64,000 nt of DNA from Vezdaea acicularis (taxonomy: Eukaryota). Of the stretch, positions 24,433-33,699 are shown in pieces. How positions within the stretch are numbered: position 1 is the first letter of the stretch; each line of letters begins with the position of its first letter. Position numbers and translations under genes: made by a program. The notes beneath the pieces are model-generated. The model worked only from the letters and a program-made list of their open reading frames with translations. It was not told where the DNA came from and did no database searches. Location: NCBI GenBank assembly GCA_026025075.1, contig JAPEUI010000017.1, positions 62,001 through 126,000 of the forward strand, given 5' to 3'.

Positions 24433-24857
24433 TTTTTGTTGAAAGAAGAGTTGTATTTGGTGTTTGTGAAAGGTTGTTAACACCCAGGCACTGTTCAACT
24501 CAAACTTACTTCAGATGTCTGGGTTTACAGATAGTTTGAGAATAAAGGCACATTTTGATCCATTTTTTTCCCTCTCAGGACTGTGATGTACAATAAGGTT
24601 TTAATTGATTGAATATCCTGATACTTACTGTTGAAAAGGGGCTGTCTCCTTTGTACAGATGTAGTTTTTTTTTTCTGATATACGTGTAACTTGGACATGA
24701 GGAGAAACTCCAGGATATATCCCTTGAAGTACTACTACTTTCCTCTAGCTTCGAGGAGTAGTCTGACCTAAGCAAAGGATTCCGCTACCGTTGAGCTTAC
24801 TGTCTCTGTATGGTCGCGCGAGGCAATTTGCACGGCGCATGCGTATCGCAGATTCAC

Positions 24858-25114
24858 TGTAAGAACGCGATGGCATCTGTCTTGGGCGCGCCGGCGCGCC
24901 CTAGACGGCTGCTCTCGCTTAGACGCCGACGGCGCTCAGGGGGCGCTTAGTCAGCGCGCCCCTTACATATATATCAAGTCGGTCCCGCTGGGGACGCGGT
25001 ATCCAATAGTCTTGACTCATAGCTAGTTCTTGGAATCTATTCATGTAATTGCAGTCCATTCATTATATCGCTATATCACTATATCTATATAGCCCTGCAA
25101 CACTGCTAGCTATC
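24858..25114 (+). mobile_element. Older LTR of the same family, 5' part (interrupted by the intact element)
   Basis: Begins TGTAAGAACGCG and aligns, mostly with transition mismatches, to the reverse complement of LTR 25236-25492; 257 bp plus the 121 bp at 33346-33466 gives a full 378-bp LTR. Confidence 0.92.
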
Positions 25115-25492
25115 TGTAAGGACGGGCACGATAGCTGCCCCTGATTCTGAGAGCGTGGTAGGCCGGCGCCGTCTGCGGCCCGCCTGCGGTGTCACTGCGT
25201 GTTTAATAGGCTATGGGGATAGGCGGGCCACCGGCGATAGCTAGCAATGTCACAGGGCTATATAGATGTAGCGGTATAGTGATATAATGAATAGACTGCG
25301 GTTATATGAATAGATTCCAAGAACTAGCTATAGATCAAGACTATTCGATGCCGCGCCCCTAGCGGGCCCGACTTGATATATATATAAGGGGCGCGCTGAC
25401 TAAGCGTCCCCTGAGCGCCGCCGGCGTCTAAGCGAGAACAGCCGTCTAGAGCGCGCCGGCGCGCTCTAGGCGGATGCCAGCGCGTTCTTACA
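25115..25492 (-). repeat. 3' LTR (378 bp)
   Basis: TGTAAG...CTTACA termini; appears identical to 32963-33340. Confidence 0.97.
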
Positions 25493-25505
25493 ACTGCCTC
25501 CCCCC
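25493..25505 (-). other. Polypurine tract (plus-strand priming site)
   Basis: The minus strand reads GGGGGGAGGCAGT immediately before the 3' LTR TGTAAG. Confidence 0.85.
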
Positions 25506-26018
25506 ATACGAAGGCTCGTCCTCGAGCCTTGTCCCGACGTCTTGCCCTTACCCTAAGCTAGGGTCCTTCTAGGGGACGTCTCTCTGTCGTCGGCTCGTCG
25601 TCTGCGGCGCTCTGCTCTCTTAATTGAAGTGACGAAGTGAGGTGAGATATAGAAGTGAGGTGAGGCGACGTAGTGGGGTGAGTTGAGCGGCTATTCTTAG
25701 CTGATCTCACCGGGCAAGGAGTTCTTCTCCTTCTAGCTATCATTAGCTTACTTCTTAGGAATAGATTCATACGCCGTAGGCGTCTTGGTTGGCCTGCGCC
25801 GTCTCTATAAGACGAGATTCTCCCGCCTATTCGAACCATCCTTCCTACATATACGCTCCCCACGCCTACGACGTCTTTCTTCTTGCCTTTGGCCCCGTCC
25901 TCTGCCCCCCGCGTCTAGTATACGTGTATCTAATACACGTATACCGTCTTCTTCTCTCCTCTCGGCGTGGCAAGGGCTCGCTCTTGTCACTTCTTTTCTT
26001 CTCGCCGGCCTAGCAGCC

Positions 26019-27446
26019 ATGCCTGCGGACCGTAACGTCTCTCGCCCCGCTGACGCTCAGCCGGCGCATCCCTATCGGCCTTCAAAGGAGACTGCGAAGA
26101 TACTGGACCAGGCTGCCTCTCTTGGTGCCGTCGAGGGAGGCAAGAAGCCCTCAAAGAAACGAGCTCCGTCGTCTGCGGCCGCCCCCTGGGCTCGTTCGAG
26201 CAACCATCCGTCTCTTCGCGTCTCTGCTGAGCCTTCTTCTCGTGGTCCTTCTCTTCCGGCTGGTCAAGACACCGTGGTTCCCCCTATCGTCGCTGCCCCT
26301 ACGTCGGCGGCTCTTGATCCTCCTGCTCCCTCTGGTTTTGTCGTCCCGGCGTCCCCTGAGCTTGGCTCGAACTCTTTCGAGGACAGCGTAATGGATGAGC
26401 TGTATCCCGCCAACGAGCCGTCGACGACCCTTGCTGCCCCGTCTCTCTCTGGTCCGTCTGCGTCTCTCCCTCAAGGGCAGACCAATGGCGATGGTCTTGC
26501 CTCTACGGTTCAGCCTGGTTACTTCGACCCGTCTTCGGATCTCTTGCGGCCTTGTTGTAAGCGCTGTGCGAAGCACTACTACGACGATCCGACTCAAATC
26601 TGCGCTCCGCCGGTGGGTTCTAGGTCTCGCTCCTGTACTCGCTGTGTGAATGGTCATAGACAATGCGAAGAGGTAAGGTTCTATCTTCTTCTCCCCCAGA
26701 GTCCCGCTGACGGTCCTAGGTTCCCGACTTTCTTGTGCCCTGGCTGCGAGACATCCAGATCCACGTCGATACTATGAAGAAGGATGACATCGTGGCAGAG
26801 AGGCTCTTGGGCCGTCTCATGAATCGTTTTGAGAAGGCCTTGCTTGAATATGAAATATTCAACAAGAAGAACCCCCTGGATCAATGTGTCGGGCTCCTTC
26901 GCGACATCCGGGACTTCGCCGCTCAACGTCTTGCCTTGGAGCGAAAGAGGGTGAGTGCTCCCCCCCTTTGACCCGCTAGGTCTGCGCTGACGTCTCTTTC
27001 TTCTCGTATAGTCGGGCCTTGTGCCTTATCTGACGCCCCGTGAGCGGGCCATACGCCGTCACCTTACCAACCTGACTTCGACTGTTATCCCCCGGTTCCA
27101 TGACATGAAGGGTGTCCTTCATGTAGGTCGCGCCCCTCCTCGCAAGAAGAAGACTGTCGTCCGCGGCGAATGCTTGGAGCTTCCGGATGCTGAAGAAGAT
27201 GATGGGCCCGCTGTCGCTCCTCCTGCGGTCAAGCGTCGCGCAAAGAAGGGTCCGGCGGTGCGTCCCGACACCTTCAGTCGCAAGACAGGTTCCGACATTC
27301 CCCATGCCCAGCTCCGGAAAGGTAAGGGTAAGGGTAAGGCCCCGCCAGCGCCGCGCCGCCGTGCTGCCAGTCCCCCCTCTCCCGAGGTCAGCCATGGTTC
27401 CGCTGATGAGGATGAGGACGAGGCTGGGTGGAGGGATGAGGATTAG
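26019..27446 (+). CDS. Antisense accessory gene inside the retrotransposon; ~439-aa protein with a variant Zn2Cys6-like motif, coiled-coil and basic/acidic tail
   Basis: ATG 26019; exons 26019-26672, 26720-26950 and 27012-27446; introns GTAAGG...GCTGAC...TAG (47 nt) and GTGAGT...GCTGAC...TAG (61 nt), both phase 0, fuse ORFs 25785.., 26735.. and 27021..; motif C-x2-C-x11-C-x10-C-x2-C-x6-C. Confidence 0.8.
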
Positions 27447-27742
27447 GGGTTCGTGGAGGAGTCGCCCGCGGGTAGGTGGTGGGGGTTATAAATTGACACG
27501 GATCGACTTGATCGGGGGGTGCTGGATGGATAGCGTTGCTGCTTTGGAGCTTTAGCTCATTCAAAAGCATTGCTTTCTTCTGCTCTTCGGAGCTTTAGCT
27601 CCGCCTTAATACGATTGCCTTTCCTCCTGCTCTTCTTTGTCTTGTCGCCAGTGACGTGTTGATGTCTTGCCTGAAGCTTCTTTGGGCTTGTTGTTGTCCC
27701 CCCTTCTTGGGGGATCCCCGCCGTCGTATCTCCTGCGGTGTG

Positions 27743-30700
27743 TCACCGTTGACGTTGTCTTCTCCTCTCCCTTTCATACGCCTCTAACGCCTCCTTCGCG
27801 TTATCCAGGTTGGCTTTAGGCTCCCACGTGTCTTCCGCCGGTGGGTAGCCTTCCCATCGTACTAGGTATTGCTTATCCCTACCGGATCCTCGCTCAGCGA
27901 GGATCTTCTCTACAACCCATTCTTCTTCCCCTTCCACTAGCTGGGCTGGCTGTCCCTGCGGTGCTCTGGCGGAGCCCTGGTAGGGCTCTAGGCAGGAGAC
28001 GTGAAACACCGGGTGGATAGCCTTGTATGATGTTGGCAGCTTCAGTCGGTAGGCTTGCTTGCCTATGATTGCTTCTACCTCGAACGGCCCTAGCCAGCGG
28101 TGGTCCAGCTTCTTGTTGGGACGCCTTGTCCTTATGTTTCGTGCCGATAGTAGGACGAGTTGTCCTATAGAGAACTCTTGTGGCTTATGGCGAGCGTTGT
28201 AGTAGGTTGCCTGCGCCTCTTTGGCGGCCTCCCATCGGGCCGCCATCTCTCCCCTGATCTCTATGAGCCTCTCAATTCTCTCGCGTGCTGCCGGCGCCTC
28301 CCCCTTAGGGGCATCGTCCTCGATGTCCTGTGGTGCCAGTGGTAGATATCCCATCAGGGCCTCGAACGGCGTCTCGCCCGTGGCTGAGTGCTTACTTCTA
28401 TTGTAGGCAAACTCTGCTGTGGCTAGAAGCGATACCCAGTCATCCTGGTGGTAGTTGGCGTAACATCGCAAGTATTGCTCCAGCGTCTGGTTCTGTCTTT
28501 CCGTCTGGCCATCCGTCTGCGGATGGAATGCGGTGCTCAGCCGTCGTTTTACCTTCAGGTGGTAGCATAGGGTAGACCAGTATTGGCTGGTGAAGATGCT
28601 CCCTCTGTCCGTGACGATTGACGCAGGTGTGCCGTAGGTTCTGATTACCTTTTCAAAGATAATGTCAGCAAGGCCTACAGCGTCAAGAGTCTTACGGATA
28701 GGGATATATTTAGCCATCTTTGTATAGCGATCGACTATCACGAGGATAGCGTCGTAAGCCTTTGATCCCCCTTCGCCATCCGCTGCTTCGCCTGCGGTGG
28801 CTAGGCTGGGTGGCAGTCCTGTGATGAGATCCATGGTGATTGATTCCCATGGCCCACTGGGTGGGGGCAACGCTTGCATCTCCCCGTAGGGCTTATGCCG
28901 TGGTGCCTTAGTTCGTTGGCATATGTCACATTCGCGGACATAGTCGGCGACCTCCTTTCTGAGGGTCTGCCAATAGTATTTTCGACTAAGTAGAGCCGTC
29001 GTCCTGGCGGCTCCAAAGTGCCCCGCGTACGGGTCGTCGTGATGGACCTTCATGATCTCTGCCCTTAGGGCTGCGTCTTTTGGCACGTATACCTTTCCCT
29101 CAAATCGCAGTAGTCCCCTGTTGTCTACACGCCACTTTTCAGGGTGCGATCCGGCTACGGTTCCCTCGCCATCTCTCAAGCTCCTCTTGATGTCTGCAGT
29201 CAGGGTGTCCCTGCGCTGCGTCTGTGATATCAGCTCGAGCAGGGAGGGGCTCGGGTCCCCATATGCCGTTTCAGTCTTGGCAGCAGTCACTGCCATAAAC
29301 CGTGGTACGAGGTGCGTCGGCGCACCAGTACCAGCCATCCGTATTCCCGGGTGGCCTATCGAGATGGAGTCCCCGTCATGGGGGCTTCCACTTCTCTCCT
29401 CTGCGTCAGGGTTGCGGCCCTTCGGCGACTGGGGTGCGGCCCAGTCCTTAGTAGTGACTGCTACCGCGAGTTCTGATTGTCTTGGGTCAATGTCCATAGG
29501 GTCCCCCCTTAGGCGTTGCCCTTCAGTATCCTGCTGATCCCGCAGGTTGTTCATAACACTCTCGGCAAGAGAGATTTCAAATTGGTACGTTGTACCGTCG
29601 GTGGTAGTCCCACGTACAACGCGTACGTAGGCCTCGATACCATCCTCGGCCTCAGCCAGATAGGCTAGTTTCCTTTGTAGGGTGGGTAGCATTGACGCTC
29701 CCAATTCCTTGTCTTCTACCCCGTAGTCGGGTCGTCTGCTAGGCCCATCGGCGGGGTTGTTCTTGCCCGGCCGGTATTCAATTTCAAAGTCGTAGGCGGC
29801 CAGCATCTCGGCCCACCGGCCCTGCCGGTTGTTGAGCGACTTCGTGCTCATAAAGTATTTCAGATTGTTGTGGTCTGTCAGGACCCTGATTGTATGAAGG
29901 CTACCTTCTAAGTAGTGTCTCCAATGCTTAAATGCCTTGACTATGGCAAGGAGTTCGGCGTCGTGCGTTTCGTAGCGGGTCTCTGCGTCTTCCATCTTCT
30001 TTGACCAGAAGGCGACTGGATGCCAGTGGCGCTGCGTGCTATCCACTGGCGTGCCGTCCGCGGGCTGGGAGAGGATTCCCGCAATGGCAAAGCCGGAGGC
30101 GTCCGTTTCTATAAGGATCCTCTTTTTGGGGTCGAAGTGTTGTAGCACAGGGGCGGTAGTAAACGCCGTCTTCAGTTCTTCAAAGGACCTCAGCCCCTGA
30201 GCCGTCATTTCAAAGGGGCCGGTCTTCCTCCCGTTCTTGCTCCCCCGCAGCATCGTCGTGAGGCCGCTTGCGACCTTCGCATAGCCCTTCACAAATCGTC
30301 TATAGAAGTTGGCAAAGCCTAAGAAAACCTGCAGTTCCCTGAAGCTCTTAGGAACGGGCCAGCTCCGGATAGACTCGATTCGGTCCTCTTCCATAGAGAC
30401 GCCCGTAGGTGATACAACGTATCCCAGGAAGCCAACCTTGGTCGTGTGGAACTCGCATTTGGACAGTTTTGCAAATAAACTATACTTGCGCAGCCTGTGG
30501 AGCACGCTGGCGACATCCTGGTGGTGCTGCTGGAGGTCGGTCGAATACACCAGTATATCGTCCATATAGACGACACAGCAGACGTCCAGGAGGTCCGACA
30601 GCGCCTCATTGATGTACGCTTGGAATGTTGCTGGAGCATTCGCTAGGCCGAAGGGCATGACCTGGTATTCCCAGTGTCCGTACCGTGTGCGGAACGCTGT

Positions 30701-31696
30701 CTTCCACTCGTCTCCCTCCTTGATCCGTATCCTATGATATGCGTCTCGGAGGTCTAGTTTGGTGAATATGGTCGCCCCCGACAATCGGTCCAAGGTTTCG
30801 CTGATAAGGGGTAAGGGGTGTCGGTTTTTTACCGTCACCTTGTTCAACCCCCTGTAGTCGACGCAGAGCCGCAGGCTACCGTCCTTCTTTGGGACGAAGA
30901 GTATCGGGGCCCCAGCGGGGCTAGTGGATCTCCTAATCCACCCCTTTGCCTCTGCGTCCTGGAGGTAATCCCGTAGGACTTCTAGTTCCCTCTCGGAGAG
31001 GTTGTAGACGGGCATCCATGGTGGGTCCCCCTGCGTTACGATGGCGTGTTCTCGGGCGTGGTGGAGGGGCAGCTCGCCAGCCTCCCGTTCAGAGAAGACG
31101 TCTTCGTATTTTTCATATTCTTTGGGGACCCCTTCCCCTGCTTTCACGTTCCCCAGGCGCGCCCCCTGGGGGTTCGTCCATTCCCCTTGGAAGACAGCGT
31201 ACGCTCGATCTCCTTGAGCTACTCGTACTGCCAGGGATTCTGGGCTGATGAGCTGGACCGACCCGGGTCCGTTGGCGTACCGCCATGTGCCCCCCTGCCA
31301 GTCTATCTTGGGGTTGGCGTGCTCTAGCCATGGGTATCCTAATATAAGCTCGTATTCCTCAATGTCGGAGGCCCAGAAGATCTGTGTAGTCGTCCTCTTG
31401 GTTCCGTTCTTGTCGGTGACTCTGATCTCCACCTGAGGTTTGCCGTATACGGGGACTTTCGTTCCGTTGACTCCCTTCGCAGTCGTAGGGGGTTCGTCGG
31501 GGGTGTCCCATCCTGCCTCCTTGACCAGGAGCTGGGATGCAAGGTTCATTTCCGCCCCTGAGTCGATGAGGGCGGTTACCGTCTGCCACCCCTTTGCGGT
31601 CTTAACGTCTGCGTAGGTGGTGAGCTTTGATCTCATGCCTCGTGTTCCTAGGCTCAGCGCGTTTGAGGCGCTTGCTACTGAGCCCCCTTGTTTTTT
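27743..31696 (-). CDS. pol: Pol polyprotein (aspartic protease, reverse transcriptase, RNase H, integrase, chromodomain)
   Basis: ALIDSGA protease; LRLCVDYRGLN, MPFGL and YMDD RT motifs; ETDASG and DAELLA RNase H; HH..H...CDIC zinc finger, MDLI/TDRG/QTER integrase core; C-terminal chromodomain VEKILAERG...YLVRWEGYPPAEDTWEP; no internal stops. Confidence 0.97.
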   Translation of the reverse strand, partial: KKQGGSVASASNALSLGTRGMRSKLTTYADVKTAKGWQTVTALIDSGAEMNLASQLLVKEAGWDTPDEPPTTAKGVNGTKVPVYGKPQVEIRVTDKNGTKRTTTQIFWASDIEEYELILGYPWLEHANPKIDWQGGTWRYANGPGSVQLISPESLAVRVAQGDRAYAVFQGEWTNPQGARLGNVKAGEGVPKEYEKYEDVFSEREAGELPLHHAREHAIVTQGDPPWMPVYNLSERELEVLRDYLQDAEAKGWIRRSTSPAGAPILFVPKKDGSLRLCVDYRGLNKVTVKNRHPLPLISETLDRLSGATIFTKLDLRDAYHRIRIKEGDEWKTAFRTRYGHWEYQVMPFGLANAPATFQAYINEALSDLLDVCCVVYMDDILVYSTDLQQHHQDVASVLHRLRKYSLFAKLSKCEFHTTKVGFLGYVVSPTGVSMEEDRIESIRSWPVPKSFRELQVFLGFANFYRRFVKGYAKVASGLTTMLRGSKNGRKTGPFEMTAQGLRSFEELKTAFTTAPVLQHFDPKKRILIETDASGFAIAGILSQPADGTPVDSTQRHWHPVAFWSKKMEDAETRYETHDAELLAIVKAFKHWRHYLEGSLHTIRVLTDHNNLKYFMSTKSLNNRQGRWAEMLAAYDFEIEYRPGKNNPADGPSRRPDYGVEDKELGASMLPTLQRKLAYLAEAEDGIEAYVRVVRGTTTDGTTYQFEISLAESVMNNLRDQQDTEGQRLRGDPMDIDPRQSELAVAVTTKDWAAPQSPKGRNPDAEERSGSPHDGDSISIGHPGIRMAGTGAPTHLVPRFMAVTAAKTETAYGDPSPSLLELISQTQRRDTLTADIKRSLRDGEGTVAGSHPEKWRVDNRGLLRFEGKVYVPKDAALRAEIMKVHHDDPYAGHFGAARTTALLSRKYYWQTLRKEVADYVRECDICQRTKAPRHKPYGEMQALPPPSGPWESITMDLITGLPPSLATAGEAADGEGGSKAYDAILVIVDRYTKMAKYIPIRKTLDAVGLADIIFEKVIRTYGTPASIVTDRGSIFTSQYWSTLCYHLKVKRRLSTAFHPQTDGQTERQNQTLEQYLRCYANYHQDDWVSLLATAEFAYNRSKHSATGETPFEALMGYLPLAPQDIEDDAPKGEAPAARERIERLIEIRGEMAARWEAAKEAQATYYNARHKPQEFSIGQLVLLSARNIRTRRPNKKLDHRWLGPFEVEAIIGKQAYRLKLPTSYKAIHPVFHVSCLEPYQGSARAPQGQPAQLVEGEEEWVVEKILAERGSGRDKQYLVRWEGYPPAEDTWEPKANLDNAKEALEAYERERRRQRQR
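31636..31696 (-). promoter_or_regulatory. Programmed -1 ribosomal frameshift signal (A AAA AAC plus pseudoknot)
   Basis: Heptamer AAAAAAC at 31696-31690 in the correct gag phase, a 5-nt spacer, stem 1 GGCTCAG/CTGAGCC, and stem 2 GCCTC/GAGGC. Confidence 0.8.
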
Positions 31697-32907
31697 GGGC
31701 TGGATTCTCGTGGTCTGGTTGGACACTCGGGCGCGTAGTGTCCCTTCTTATTGCACAAGTAGCAGACCACATCCCTAGGGGGTCTGCGAGCCGTAGGTGG
31801 TCTCTCTGGTCCCCGTGGGAGACCTGCAGCTATGGGTCTCCCCTCTGGCGGCCCTCTCTGGGGCAAACCCTTGTTGAAACGGGGGCGTAGGCGGTCCTGA
31901 AGACCCTCCCTTGGTTTATACTTGTCGGCCTTTGCTTTCATGTTCTCCTCGAACTGGCTCAGCAGCCTAATCAGTTCTGGCCTGTCGGTCATCGGAGACG
32001 GATACTCTGTGACCTTCTCGCGCAGTTCTGGTCGCACTTTTGCAAGGAGATGCTGCATCCTCTGTTTCTCGGTGTAGGGTTCTAGTTCGCTCTCCAGCTG
32101 ATCCATGTATGCTACAAACGACTGGACCGTCTGCGTAGCGCCCTGCTTTGCTTCTTCATACTTGAGAATCGAGGAGTGATATCGATTAGCTGGGCTCTGT
32201 ATGAGGTCTAGTAGGAACGTCGCGAACTGGTCCCAGCTATACGACTTGCCGTCTTCGAACCGTAGGCATCGATCCCATGCGTCTCCCGCTTCACCCTTCA
32301 CCGCCTTCGAGGCGTATGTGATGCGTACGAAGTCGGATCTGAAAGTCTTTGGATCTAGGTCAAATATTTGGTTGCACTCCCGGATGAAGTCTGTATGTTG
32401 ACGCACAGTCTTTCCTAGATATTCAGGGGGCTTTGAGGGCGCCTTGACGTTAGTTTCTGCGTGCTCGTCAACGTTTCTCCGCCGTCTCTTTGACGAGCTC
32501 GAGGCAGCGTCGTCGTCGTCTTCCGTATAGCTGGCGTCATCCTCAATGACCCCCCTGCGATACGCTCTGTCCGCCGCAGCCATGGCGGCTTTCTTTCGTT
32601 CCAGAGCGTCAAGAACCCTCTGTCTTTCTAATAGAGCGTCTTGGCGCCTTATCTCTTCGATATCGTCTTGTATCTCTTGGTAGGTTAGCTGCTGGGGGTC
32701 GACGCTCCCCTGCCTCTGGCCTCGAGGGGTCTTCCTTTCGCGCCGTCGCCGCTCTGACGACGGAGCGATGGGGTCGTCCGAGCCTGATGACCCTCTGTCT
32801 TCAGGGGGTTGGTCGATCGGATCGTCCCCTATGGTGCTGTTGCTTCTATTGGTTGTCTCCATCGTAAGGGGCGATTTCGACGTTCGTGTGCCCCTGCGTG
32901 TTTTCAT
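31675..32907 (-). CDS. gag: Gag with CCHC zinc knuckle
   Basis: 410-aa ORF just inside the 5' LTR; retrotrans-gag-like core (KQGATQTVQSF) and CYLCNKKGHYAPEC knuckle; overlaps pol in the -1 frame. Confidence 0.93.
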   Translation of the reverse strand: MKTRRGTRTSKSPLTMETTNRSNSTIGDDPIDQPPEDRGSSGSDDPIAPSSERRRRERKTPRGQRQGSVDPQQLTYQEIQDDIEEIRRQDALLERQRVLDALERKKAAMAAADRAYRRGVIEDDASYTEDDDDAASSSSKRRRRNVDEHAETNVKAPSKPPEYLGKTVRQHTDFIRECNQIFDLDPKTFRSDFVRITYASKAVKGEAGDAWDRCLRFEDGKSYSWDQFATFLLDLIQSPANRYHSSILKYEEAKQGATQTVQSFVAYMDQLESELEPYTEKQRMQHLLAKVRPELREKVTEYPSPMTDRPELIRLLSQFEENMKAKADKYKPREGLQDRLRPRFNKGLPQRGPPEGRPIAAGLPRGPERPPTARRPPRDVVCYLCNKKGHYAPECPTRPRESSPKNKGAQ

Positions 32908-32950
32908 CTGATGTCCGTCGGCGGCTACCGGGCTCTCTCCCTGAGGGTAG

Positions 32951-32959
32951 ATCGAATAG
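32951..32959 (-). promoter_or_regulatory. Self-priming (Tf1-type) primer binding site
   Basis: Element-sense CTATTCGAT lies 3 nt inside the 5' LTR and is the exact complement of ATCGAATAG (33197-33189) just downstream of the LTR TATA box; there is no TGG tRNA-type PBS. Confidence 0.75.
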
Positions 32960-32962
32960 AAT

Positions 32963-33340
32963 TGTAAGGACGGGCACGATAGCTGCCCCTGATTCTGAGA
33001 GCGTGGTAGGCCGGCGCCGTCTGCGGCCCGCCTGCGGTGTCACTGCGTGTTTAATAGGCTATGGGGATAGGCGGGCCACCGGCGATAGCTAGCAATGTCA
33101 CAGGGCTATATAGATGTAGCGGTATAGTGATATAATGAATAGACTGCGGTTATATGAATAGATTCCAAGAACTAGCTATAGATCAAGACTATTCGATGCC
33201 GCGCCCCTAGCGGGCCCGACTTGATATATATATAAGGGGCGCGCTGACTAAGCGTCCCCTGAGCGCCGCCGGCGTCTAAGCGAGAACAGCCGTCTAGAGC
33301 GCGCCGGCGCGCTCTAGGCGGATGCCAGCGCGTTCTTACA
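32963..33340 (-). repeat. 5' LTR (378 bp) with TATA box at ~33224-33235
   Basis: TG...CA termini; appears identical to 25115-25492. Confidence 0.97.
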
Positions 33341-33345
33341 CTATC

Positions 33346-33466
33346 GCCGGCGAGCCGCCTACTCTTATAGTCTATTAAACACGCAGCGACACTGCAGGCG
33401 GACCGCAGACGGCGCCGGCCTACCACGCTCTCAGAATCAGAGGCAGCTATTGTGTCTATCCTTACA
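33346..33466 (+). mobile_element. Older LTR of the same family, 3' part
   Basis: Continues the alignment from 25114 after the TSD and ends ...TCCTTACA; it is a diverged reverse complement of 32963-33083. Confidence 0.92.
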
Positions 33467-33699
33467 GCTATATATTAACAGAAGCAGCGTCCTTACAGCG
33501 CTTGCCCATAGAGGTAGCGCTATAAGGCATGCGATTGCCCCGCAACAAACAACGCTTATCGCGCTGTCCTGACTGGGCAGTTGTGATTAGGCACATGATG
33601 ACTTGTATATATAGCGTATCCCCTTAAATAGAAACAATACAATTCTTTCATCATAAACTTGTATTAGGACGCCTTGTCCTTGAAATGTCTGGATACCTC

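Follow-up and report, generated by a model that had tools for sequence, protein, structure and literature searches.

An antisense gene with a Zn2Cys6-like domain and predicted introns in a family of fungal Ty3/gypsy chromoviruses

Why would a retrotransposon carry, on the strand opposite to its genomic RNA, a gene that has introns? The question is raised by a 64,000-nt stretch of Vezdaea acicularis DNA (contig JAPEUI010000017.1, positions 62,001 to 126,000), here called the window, in which an intact Ty3/gypsy chromovirus occupies positions 25115-33340 on the minus strand. Between the stop codon of its pol gene and its polypurine tract (PPT), plus-strand exons beginning with an ATG at 26019 join into a protein of 439 aa. 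We hold with high confidence that this antisense gene and its family are real, and that they represent a genuine retrotransposon accessory gene; the gene is neither a chance open reading frame (ORF) nor a one-off capture. The family appears to be carried by a clade of ascomycete-type chromoviruses, at the same antisense place past the pol stop. What the protein does for the element is a second question, to which we can offer a more tentative answer.

The exons are distinct in character. Exon 1 (26019-26672, 218 codons) encodes a Pro/Ser-rich N-terminus, conserved with the paralogue P0009, and then a six-cysteine (Cys6) domain. Exon 2 (26720-26950, 77 codons) is predicted to be helical and is likewise conserved with P0009, and exon 3 (27012-27446, 144 codons and the stop) contains the conserved block IPRFHD..GVLHVGRAP, followed by Lys/Arg tracts and an acidic tail. 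They are separated by two predicted phase-0 introns of 47 nt (26673-26719, GTAAGG...GCTGAC...CCTAG) and 61 nt (26951-27011, GTGAGT...GCTGAC...TATAG). An initial annotation of this DNA, made from the letters alone, had proposed three plus-strand pieces joined into 439 aa, and translation bears out every one of its coordinates (218 + 77 + 144 codons). The two phase-0 introns that it described, with GT..AG ends and the GCTGAC branch motif, are where it placed them, and the Cys motif, the basic tracts PRKKK, KRRAKK and PRRR and the acidic tail can all be read in the translation. The gene thus lies between the pol stop and the PPT and 3′ long terminal repeat (LTR), on the strand opposite gag-pol, which is the position of the antisense genes known as aORF-3R. 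Introns that are antisense to a genomic RNA are not introns on that RNA, an established principle, and it is because of this orientation that the two introns can persist through reverse transcription.

The locus already has a public gene model, P0004, recorded at NCBI as a hypothetical protein of the metagenome-assembled genome of V. acicularis, a lichen-forming fungus. This model (419 aa) joins 26019-26612, 26720-26950 and 27012-27443; its intron 1 starts at a GTGGGT donor at 26613, 60 nt upstream of the donor at 26673. The splice from 26612 to 26720 drops 20 codons (26613-26672) with three conserved cysteines, the second half of the Cys motif. Exons 1 and 2 occupy different frames, and P0009 has conserved counterparts of both, so that some splice across 26613-26719 is required. 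The position of the intron in relatives, described below, favours 26673 over the public 26613 as the true donor, in agreement with the initial annotation, and to judge from that comparison the public model at this locus is mis-spliced.

The strongest reason to take the gene seriously is that it is found in other elements. A scan of metagenome contigs with a pol alignment gave 80 loci, with a best-segment pol identity of 38-64%. Among the 52 loci that include the 3′ end of pol, 10 have a Cys6 antisense ORF, and many of the others are too short downstream to judge. Together with the window element, these make up a family of 11 (the window, L001, L003, L007, L008, L009, L019, L021, L047, L052 and L060). 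In all 10 relatives the Cys exon is antisense to pol, 0.4-1.3 kb past its stop; two of the contigs, L001 and L003, are circularly permuted, and the ends of L003 overlap by 154 nt. The six-Cys pattern itself is strongly biased in strand, with 13 antisense matches in 302,692 translated residues versus 1 sense match in 369,261. Independently of the pattern search, a tblastn search with exon 1 hit L003 on its antisense strand, across the Cys motif (E=0.004). Antisense Cys matches in L056 (a zinc-knuckle-like stretch far from pol) and L069 (a Cys/Val/Leu repeat) were set aside as unrelated. Two long antisense ORFs next to chromoviruses, at L017 5171-6100 and L006 6544-7062, are not accessory genes but fragments of DNA transposases; they have a Tc1/mariner-type helix-turn-helix and a piggyBac-like DDE domain and belong to neighbouring or nested elements.

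The relatives also share an intron. In 8 of the 11 elements a GT donor (GTGAGT, GTAAGT, GTGAGC, GTAGGT or GTAAGG) stands exactly two codons past the last cysteine, and an AG 44-57 nt past the donor opens a frame of 76-190 codons, with the next exon tending to begin with V or I followed by P, or a similar pair. In L019, L047 and L052 the frame runs on for 128-200 codons without an intron. Because the search pattern ignored the sequence downstream of the cysteines, the shared donor is independent evidence that these genes are homologous, that they are spliced and that intron 1 of the window gene starts at 26673. What marks the family is a six-Cys domain; in most members a phase-0 intron comes next, and then a helical region, basic tracts and an acidic C-terminus. 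The intronless L047 has the same order as the window protein: Cys domain, Lys/Arg tracts, helices, KGKGKAKP and acidic tail. BLAST found no similarity between the window protein and the later exons of the relatives beyond the Cys domain.

A FastTree tree of the reverse transcriptase (RT) core (68 rows) places the window and seven Cys6 loci in one clade of 16 rows, with support 95. Four of the other eight rows lack the end of pol, two have less than 1.3 kb downstream and two can be evaluated. L047 and L052 fall outside this clade, and L060 could not be placed on the tree. Since the tree is unrooted and was made by a quick method, gain and loss of the Cys6 gene look the same on it.

Selection on the antisense gene could be followed in L007 and L008, which come from different metagenomes and have 87% DNA identity across the whole element. 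By the Nei-Gojobori method, the ratio of nonsynonymous to synonymous substitution rates (dN/dS) between them is 0.15 for pol (1478 codons) and 0.215 for gag (555 codons). For antisense exon 1 it is 0.036 (88 codons; 30.5 synonymous and 6.5 nonsynonymous changes) and for antisense exon 2 it is 0.039 (104 codons; 27 synonymous and 5 nonsynonymous changes). The third antisense piece is at 0.345 (95 codons), and the two other frames of the same antisense DNA give values of 3-11 (75-98 codons). As a negative control we used antisense open frames found right after pol in a Cys-less clade (L035 3850-4200, L039 9188-9469 and L056 9514-9864); these are conserved, have a dN/dS of 0.5-0.9 and look non-coding. 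At least in the L007/L008 lineage, then, the antisense protein is more tightly constrained than the enzymes of the element. The comparison with related families that the initial annotation had recommended, for ORF, splice site and dN/dS, therefore came out on the side of conservation, and its view of the locus as an element-borne, spliced antisense accessory gene now has behind it a gene in the same place in 10 relatives, a shared intron and low dN/dS. Conservation, which is expected of aORF-3R genes, is seen in the 10 related loci, in the L007/L008 comparison and in copies within the same species and in environmental contigs.

These copies emerged from searches with the protein. An exhaustive HMMER search of 1.84 billion representative proteins with P0004, the model that lacks the second half of the Cys motif, returned four matches at E<=0.001. 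P0005 is a 91%-identical copy from the same species; P0006 is an environmental ORF, 96% identical, that reads through intron 1; P0007 is a diverged protein whose cluster also includes P0009 (508 aa, same species). The fourth, P0008, is a repetitive protein with 30% identity (E 2.7e-4), a weak match that we do not count as a relative. Over its length P0009 has 31% identity to P0004, and the conserved stretches come in the same order in both: an N-terminal block of ~66 residues, the helical part encoded by exon 2, and two exon 3 motifs, GL.P..T.RER and IPRFHD..GVLHVGRAP. The contiguous ORF of P0007 ends in ...DYT-VSVSSSCR where P0009 runs on as ...DYT-YGLPPC. This tail looks like read-through into an intron beginning with GT, which places an intron at the alignment column of window intron 2; the P0007/P0009 family probably has an intron at that position. 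The C-terminus of P0009 is an array of Ser/acidic repeats of ~21 residues each. A profile search with the alignment of the whole protein family (A, that of the window, and B, that of P0009) returned only the family itself, and a metagenome scan with its N-terminal patterns gave 133 pattern matches, none of which was confirmed. Searching the protein collection for pol gave none that belonged to the same genome.

At the DNA level, contigs from three metagenome studies cover the antisense-gene region in part; one of them joins the spacer past the antisense stop to pol, and another runs from the end of the 3′ LTR into the upstream spacer. Diverged copies of the element are present in moss, soil and biocrust metagenomes (window 24800-33500; runs X1, X2, X5 and X6). 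The differences in X1 are mostly transitions, among those listed (C>T 72, G>A 67, T>C 54, A>G 39), and 17 of the 30 residue changes in P0005 fit single C>T or G>A changes. Such transition-rich decay could reflect a process like repeat-induced point mutation, or deamination. A soil contig from X5 tracks the window to 27439, 7 bases before the antisense stop, and then continues into unrelated sequence; it may have a variant C-terminus or be a rearranged copy.

That brings us to the Cys6 domain, on which any functional proposal turns. It lies at 26553-26666 on the plus strand and reads CC-x2-C-x11-C-x10-C-x2-C-x6-C. In an alignment of the 11 domains the six cysteines are invariant, and the relatives have 24-41% identity to the window domain. 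Loop 1 varies from 6 to 31 residues across the family, and the second half is always C-x2-C-x6-7-C. One member of the 11, L052, has the canonical Zn2Cys6 spacing (C-x2-C-x6-C-x8-C-x2-C-x6-C); its Cys domain is followed by a long helical stretch that weakly matches coiled coils, and a search of PDB sequences with L052 gave nothing meaningful. A fold model of the Cys domain (predicted local distance difference test, pLDDT, 61.5) has a short helix directly after each CxxC. When this model was compared with 48,161 chains, GAL4 (1aw6) was the sole chain at Z>=2 (Z 2.0, root mean square deviation 4.1 Å over 40 residues). In a Foldseek search with the same model, GAL4 1aw6 again had the best TM-score (E 9.7, TM 0.37/0.41) among seven weak rows, none of them significant. 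The ESM Atlas gave no usable hit for the whole protein; for the Cys domain it gave only leads below 0.9, among them a cluster in which 28% of the members have DUF3716, a domain that the Pfam scans did not confirm. The claim of a Zn2Cys6-like motif thus stands as far as a conserved domain with similar spacing goes, and falls short where the family profile and the paralogue, considered below, are concerned. We call the domain Zn2Cys6-like and do not file it as a member of that family, since the fold signals are hints and not proof.

The protein layout, with a cysteine cluster, helices, basic tracts and an acidic end, matches that of a small activator of the Gal4 type, and strong selection on a gene borne by an element suggests that its product serves the propagation of that element. 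We imagine that the antisense gene has a promoter of its own, which drives transcription on the strand opposite to the genomic RNA, that the Cys6 domain binds zinc and folds as a loosened binuclear cluster of the Gal4 type, and that the basic tracts carry the protein to the nucleus. There it would be a sequence-specific DNA-binding regulator of the element's own expression, acting by activation of the LTR promoter or by protection from silencing, in a functional parallel to the regulatory genes of complex retroviruses. Of these steps, we infer the binding of zinc and of DNA, the nuclear location, the target and the sign of regulation, and splicing is predicted from the sequence. A zinc-dependent nuclear DNA-binding regulator of element expression or silencing state is our tentative proposal, a little likelier to be wrong than right; the best explanation taken as a whole, from the gene to its regulatory role, we regard as evenly balanced. 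One can go further and envision the whole chromovirus clade as "complex" retrotransposons, each with a Gal4-derived zinc-cluster factor that switches on or shields its own LTR, an extension that we find rather doubtful.

Several observations weigh against the regulator proposal, or against the reach of the evidence for it. Because the relatives were chosen by their Cys pattern, the invariance of the six cysteines is partly circular. The loop between the second and third cysteines of the window domain has 11 residues versus the canonical 6, so that its spacing, C-x2-C-x11-C-x10-C-x2-C-x6-C, departs from the canonical C-x2-C-x6-C-x5-12-C-x2-C-x6-8-C. The Pfam Zn_clus profile (PF00172) matches none of the 11 isolated domains at E<=10, and at that threshold no Pfam family matches the antisense exons or the ORFs of the relatives. 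A PDB sequence search with the domain profile returned no chain of the Gal4 type, and the structural hints to GAL4 are all below significance thresholds. The fold model of the whole protein, with a pLDDT of 38.2, was too poor to be used in a fold search; most of it is disordered, and its helices are confined to residues 204-300 of P0004. Paralogue family B (P0009) lacks ~75 residues, including the whole Cys motif, and lacks intron 1, so that the domain is dispensable in at least one lineage. L004 and L006, the two evaluable members of the 16-row RT clade, have no Cys6 ORF. The CGG/CCG-rich segments of the LTR had been put forward as binding targets, a suggestion to which a count lends no direct support: there is no notable CGG-N-CCG pairing in the LTR (at most two pairs at any spacing, counted without a chance control). 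Selection was measured on the relatives L007 and L008, the other copies of the window's own family being represented by protein sequences. Finally, P0005 is partly degraded, with 30 of 374 aligned residues changed and 44 residues at the start of exon 3 missing, and a soil contig has a 1-nt deletion at 26124. Decayed copies are expected of any transposon family and have little bearing on selection in the active lineage.

How do other explanations fare? At one extreme, the element might have picked up a fragment of a host gene in a single neutral event, or the frame might simply be open by chance. The plus strand of this spacer is A-poor (16% A), and because of this, stop codons are scarce and long open frames arise by chance: in shuffled spacers the mean longest open run is 155 codons, and the observed run of 346 codons was reached in 2 of 2000 shuffles. 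The length of the open frame alone is therefore suggestive, not decisive, and very large protein sets did give relatives solely in the same species and a few environmental contigs. This explanation is nevertheless, in our view, refuted by the same kind of gene in the same place in 10 related elements, the conserved intron position and a dN/dS of 0.04 in relatives. There is also a paralogue at 31% identity, and no host copy of the antisense gene was found, a near-identical host gene being what the initial annotation had named as the sign of a capture. We consider capture or chance hardly credible. Alternatively, the gene could be a brake, its product repressing the element as a form of copy-number control, or its transcript, convergent with that of pol, feeding silencing by double-stranded RNA (dsRNA) and small interfering RNA. 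Gene and pol are indeed convergent, with 296 nt between their stops, and dsRNA-mediated regulation has been raised as an option for plant antisense ORFs in the accessible text of a 2020 review (PMC7264820). However, purifying selection at the amino acid level exceeds that on pol in the related pair, which shows that the protein, and not the transcript alone, is seen by selection, and an element lineage would have difficulty in retaining a pure brake that did not also aid persistence. We think a brake quite improbable.

A closer competitor accepts that the protein is real and selected and has it act on RNA or particles instead of DNA, as a zinc-knuckle-like chaperone, a factor for export or packaging of the genomic RNA, or a cofactor for integration targeting. 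A Cys-rich zinc module with basic tracts and long disorder would fit nucleic-acid chaperones equally well, and the lack of a Zn_clus match, an LTR without notable CGG pairs and a family B that works without the Cys domain would sit comfortably with such a role. The six-Cys spacing, the canonical spacing of L052 and GAL4 as the sole weak structural neighbour, on the other hand, point to a binuclear cluster and not to CCHC knuckles, and the acidic tails, which recur in the family, are typical of activators. On this evidence a role on RNA or particles seems unlikely, and the zinc-cluster regulator of element expression is the proposal that we carry forward.

The element around the gene is complete, as the initial annotation had it. 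Its two LTRs (3′ LTR, 25115-25492; 5′ LTR, 32963-33340, both on the minus strand) are 378 bp each, 100% identical and bounded by TG..CA, and a target-site duplication, CTATC, is present at 25110-25114 and 33341-33345. The PPT, GGGGGGAGGCAG in minus-strand letters, is at 25494-25505 and adjoins the 3′ LTR. On the minus strand, gag (31675-32907, first ATG at 32907) contains a zinc knuckle and overlaps the pol frame by 73 nt; pol (27743-31747) encodes protease (PR), RT, RNase H, integrase (IN), SH3 and chromodomain regions. The TG..CA LTRs, target-site duplication, PPT, gag knuckle, PR-RT-RNase H-IN order and C-terminal chromodomain identify the element as a chromovirus with full gag and pol domains. 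The spacer upstream of the antisense gene (25493-26018, plus strand, 526 nt) has a TATAA at 25806 and presumably holds the promoter of that gene. At 25918-25944, 75 nt before the antisense ATG, this spacer also contains a perfect 12+3+12 palindrome, GTATACGTGTAT-CTA-ATACACGTATAC, which occurs nowhere else in the window and is a candidate control site for the antisense promoter.

The element was inserted into an older, related LTR of opposite orientation (24858-25114 and 33341-33470), which is 87-89% identical to its own LTR. The two halves of this older LTR overlap by the 5-bp target duplication, so the element is nested in what was either a solo LTR or part of an older copy. No second copy of the element was found within the window. 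The neighbourhood (window 1-24000 and 34000-64000) is gene-rich, with ordinary fungal housekeeping genes; Pfam matches in the region include 3-beta-HSD-like, PNPOx-like, RSN1/PHM7 channel, MCM6, FNIP-like and Iml1/DEPDC5 proteins, as well as a RING/helicase protein, a CCA-adding-type polymerase and TRAPP Trs85. The 25 long window ORFs that were scanned included no host Zn2Cys6 gene.

Extra antisense genes in LTR retrotransposons were recognized decades ago, and we know of none with an established function. Antisense ORFs between pol and the 3′ LTR have been reviewed for plants (Grande, RIRE2, Retand and PvRetro13), and the accessible text of that review includes one non-plant case, Boty of Botrytis and Sclerotinia (PMC7264820). 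Because this kind of gene is already known, from plants as well as from Boty, the premise of the initial annotation that gypsy elements normally encode only gag and pol (sometimes env) was too strict. Antisense genes in this position are thus known as a kind, and the Cys6 family appears new. In our literature search we met no account of a fungal retrotransposon with an antisense gene of the Cys-rich or zinc-cluster type, although subscription journals and supplements may hold one, and the literature on such antisense genes that we found describes no conserved intron and no selection stronger than on pol. According to the 2020 review, no clear likeness between these antisense proteins and other proteins had been reported (PMC7264820). 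The fungal family offers concrete handles, namely, a compact six-Cys domain, a conserved intron that marks the frame and, in one pair, selection above that on pol, and these make the function of antisense genes directly testable. The public model here is mis-spliced, to judge from the relatives, and is presented as a hypothetical host protein; it is therefore probable that many fungal annotations hide similar genes or have masked them. If the zinc-cluster proposal is true, a transposon would carry the most typically fungal class of DNA-binding domain, and its regulator would be more constrained than its reverse transcriptase.

How, then, does the window gene compare with systems already described? 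With the plant aORF-3R genes it shares the antisense orientation and the place between pol and the 3′ LTR. Grande gene23 has its own promoter and a nuclear product, as given in the accessible text of the review (PMC7264820), and gene23, RIRE2 and Retand antisense genes are described there and in a second, partly available source as present in most copies (PMC7264820, PMC11963269). The latter reports, in its available text, that Retand antisense ORFs encode a TRP28 domain (PF04195), predicted to bind DNA (PMC11963269). The word "intron" does not occur in the available texts of either source (PMC7264820, PMC11963269). The plant genes also differ in belonging to non-chromovirus lineages, whereas the window protein has the Cys6 domain and no match to the Transposase_28/TRP28 profile (PF04195) at E<=10.

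Closer in setting is brtn, an antisense gene of Boty-like Ty3/gypsy chromoviruses in Botrytis cinerea and Sclerotinia, reportedly described by Zhao et al. in 2011 (Virology 417:248). Boty-like chromoviruses carrying brtn, and a BRTN protein in databases, are mentioned in the accessible text of several papers (PMC8365987, PMC4227169, PMC5987419). As far as those texts go, the likeness is considerable: an ascomycete chromovirus, an integrase with a chromodomain, and an extra gene that is antisense to gag-pol and lies between pol and the 3′ LTR. When the window protein was searched against protein collections, in the version of the gene model with half of the Cys motif missing, no match carried the name BRTN. 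The Cys6 family could about equally well be brtn under another name or something different.

With the Gal4-type Zn2Cys6 proteins (PF00172) the window protein has in common the six cysteines arranged as two CxxC...C halves, helices after the cluster and an acidic C-terminus; it differs in a loop 1 of 11 residues, in having no profile match, in being much smaller and in being encoded by a mobile element. A parallel in genetic organization is HBZ of human T-cell leukemia virus type 1, a spliced antisense gene between pol and the 3′ LTR whose product is a nuclear regulator with basic and activation regions. HBZ is a basic leucine zipper protein of a vertebrate retrovirus, with a first exon located in the 3′ LTR. 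HBZ and the window gene are unrelated in sequence and domains, and the likeness is one of logic only; if the elements described here do form a clade with zinc-cluster regulators, they would be a fungal counterpart of the retroviral transactivators.

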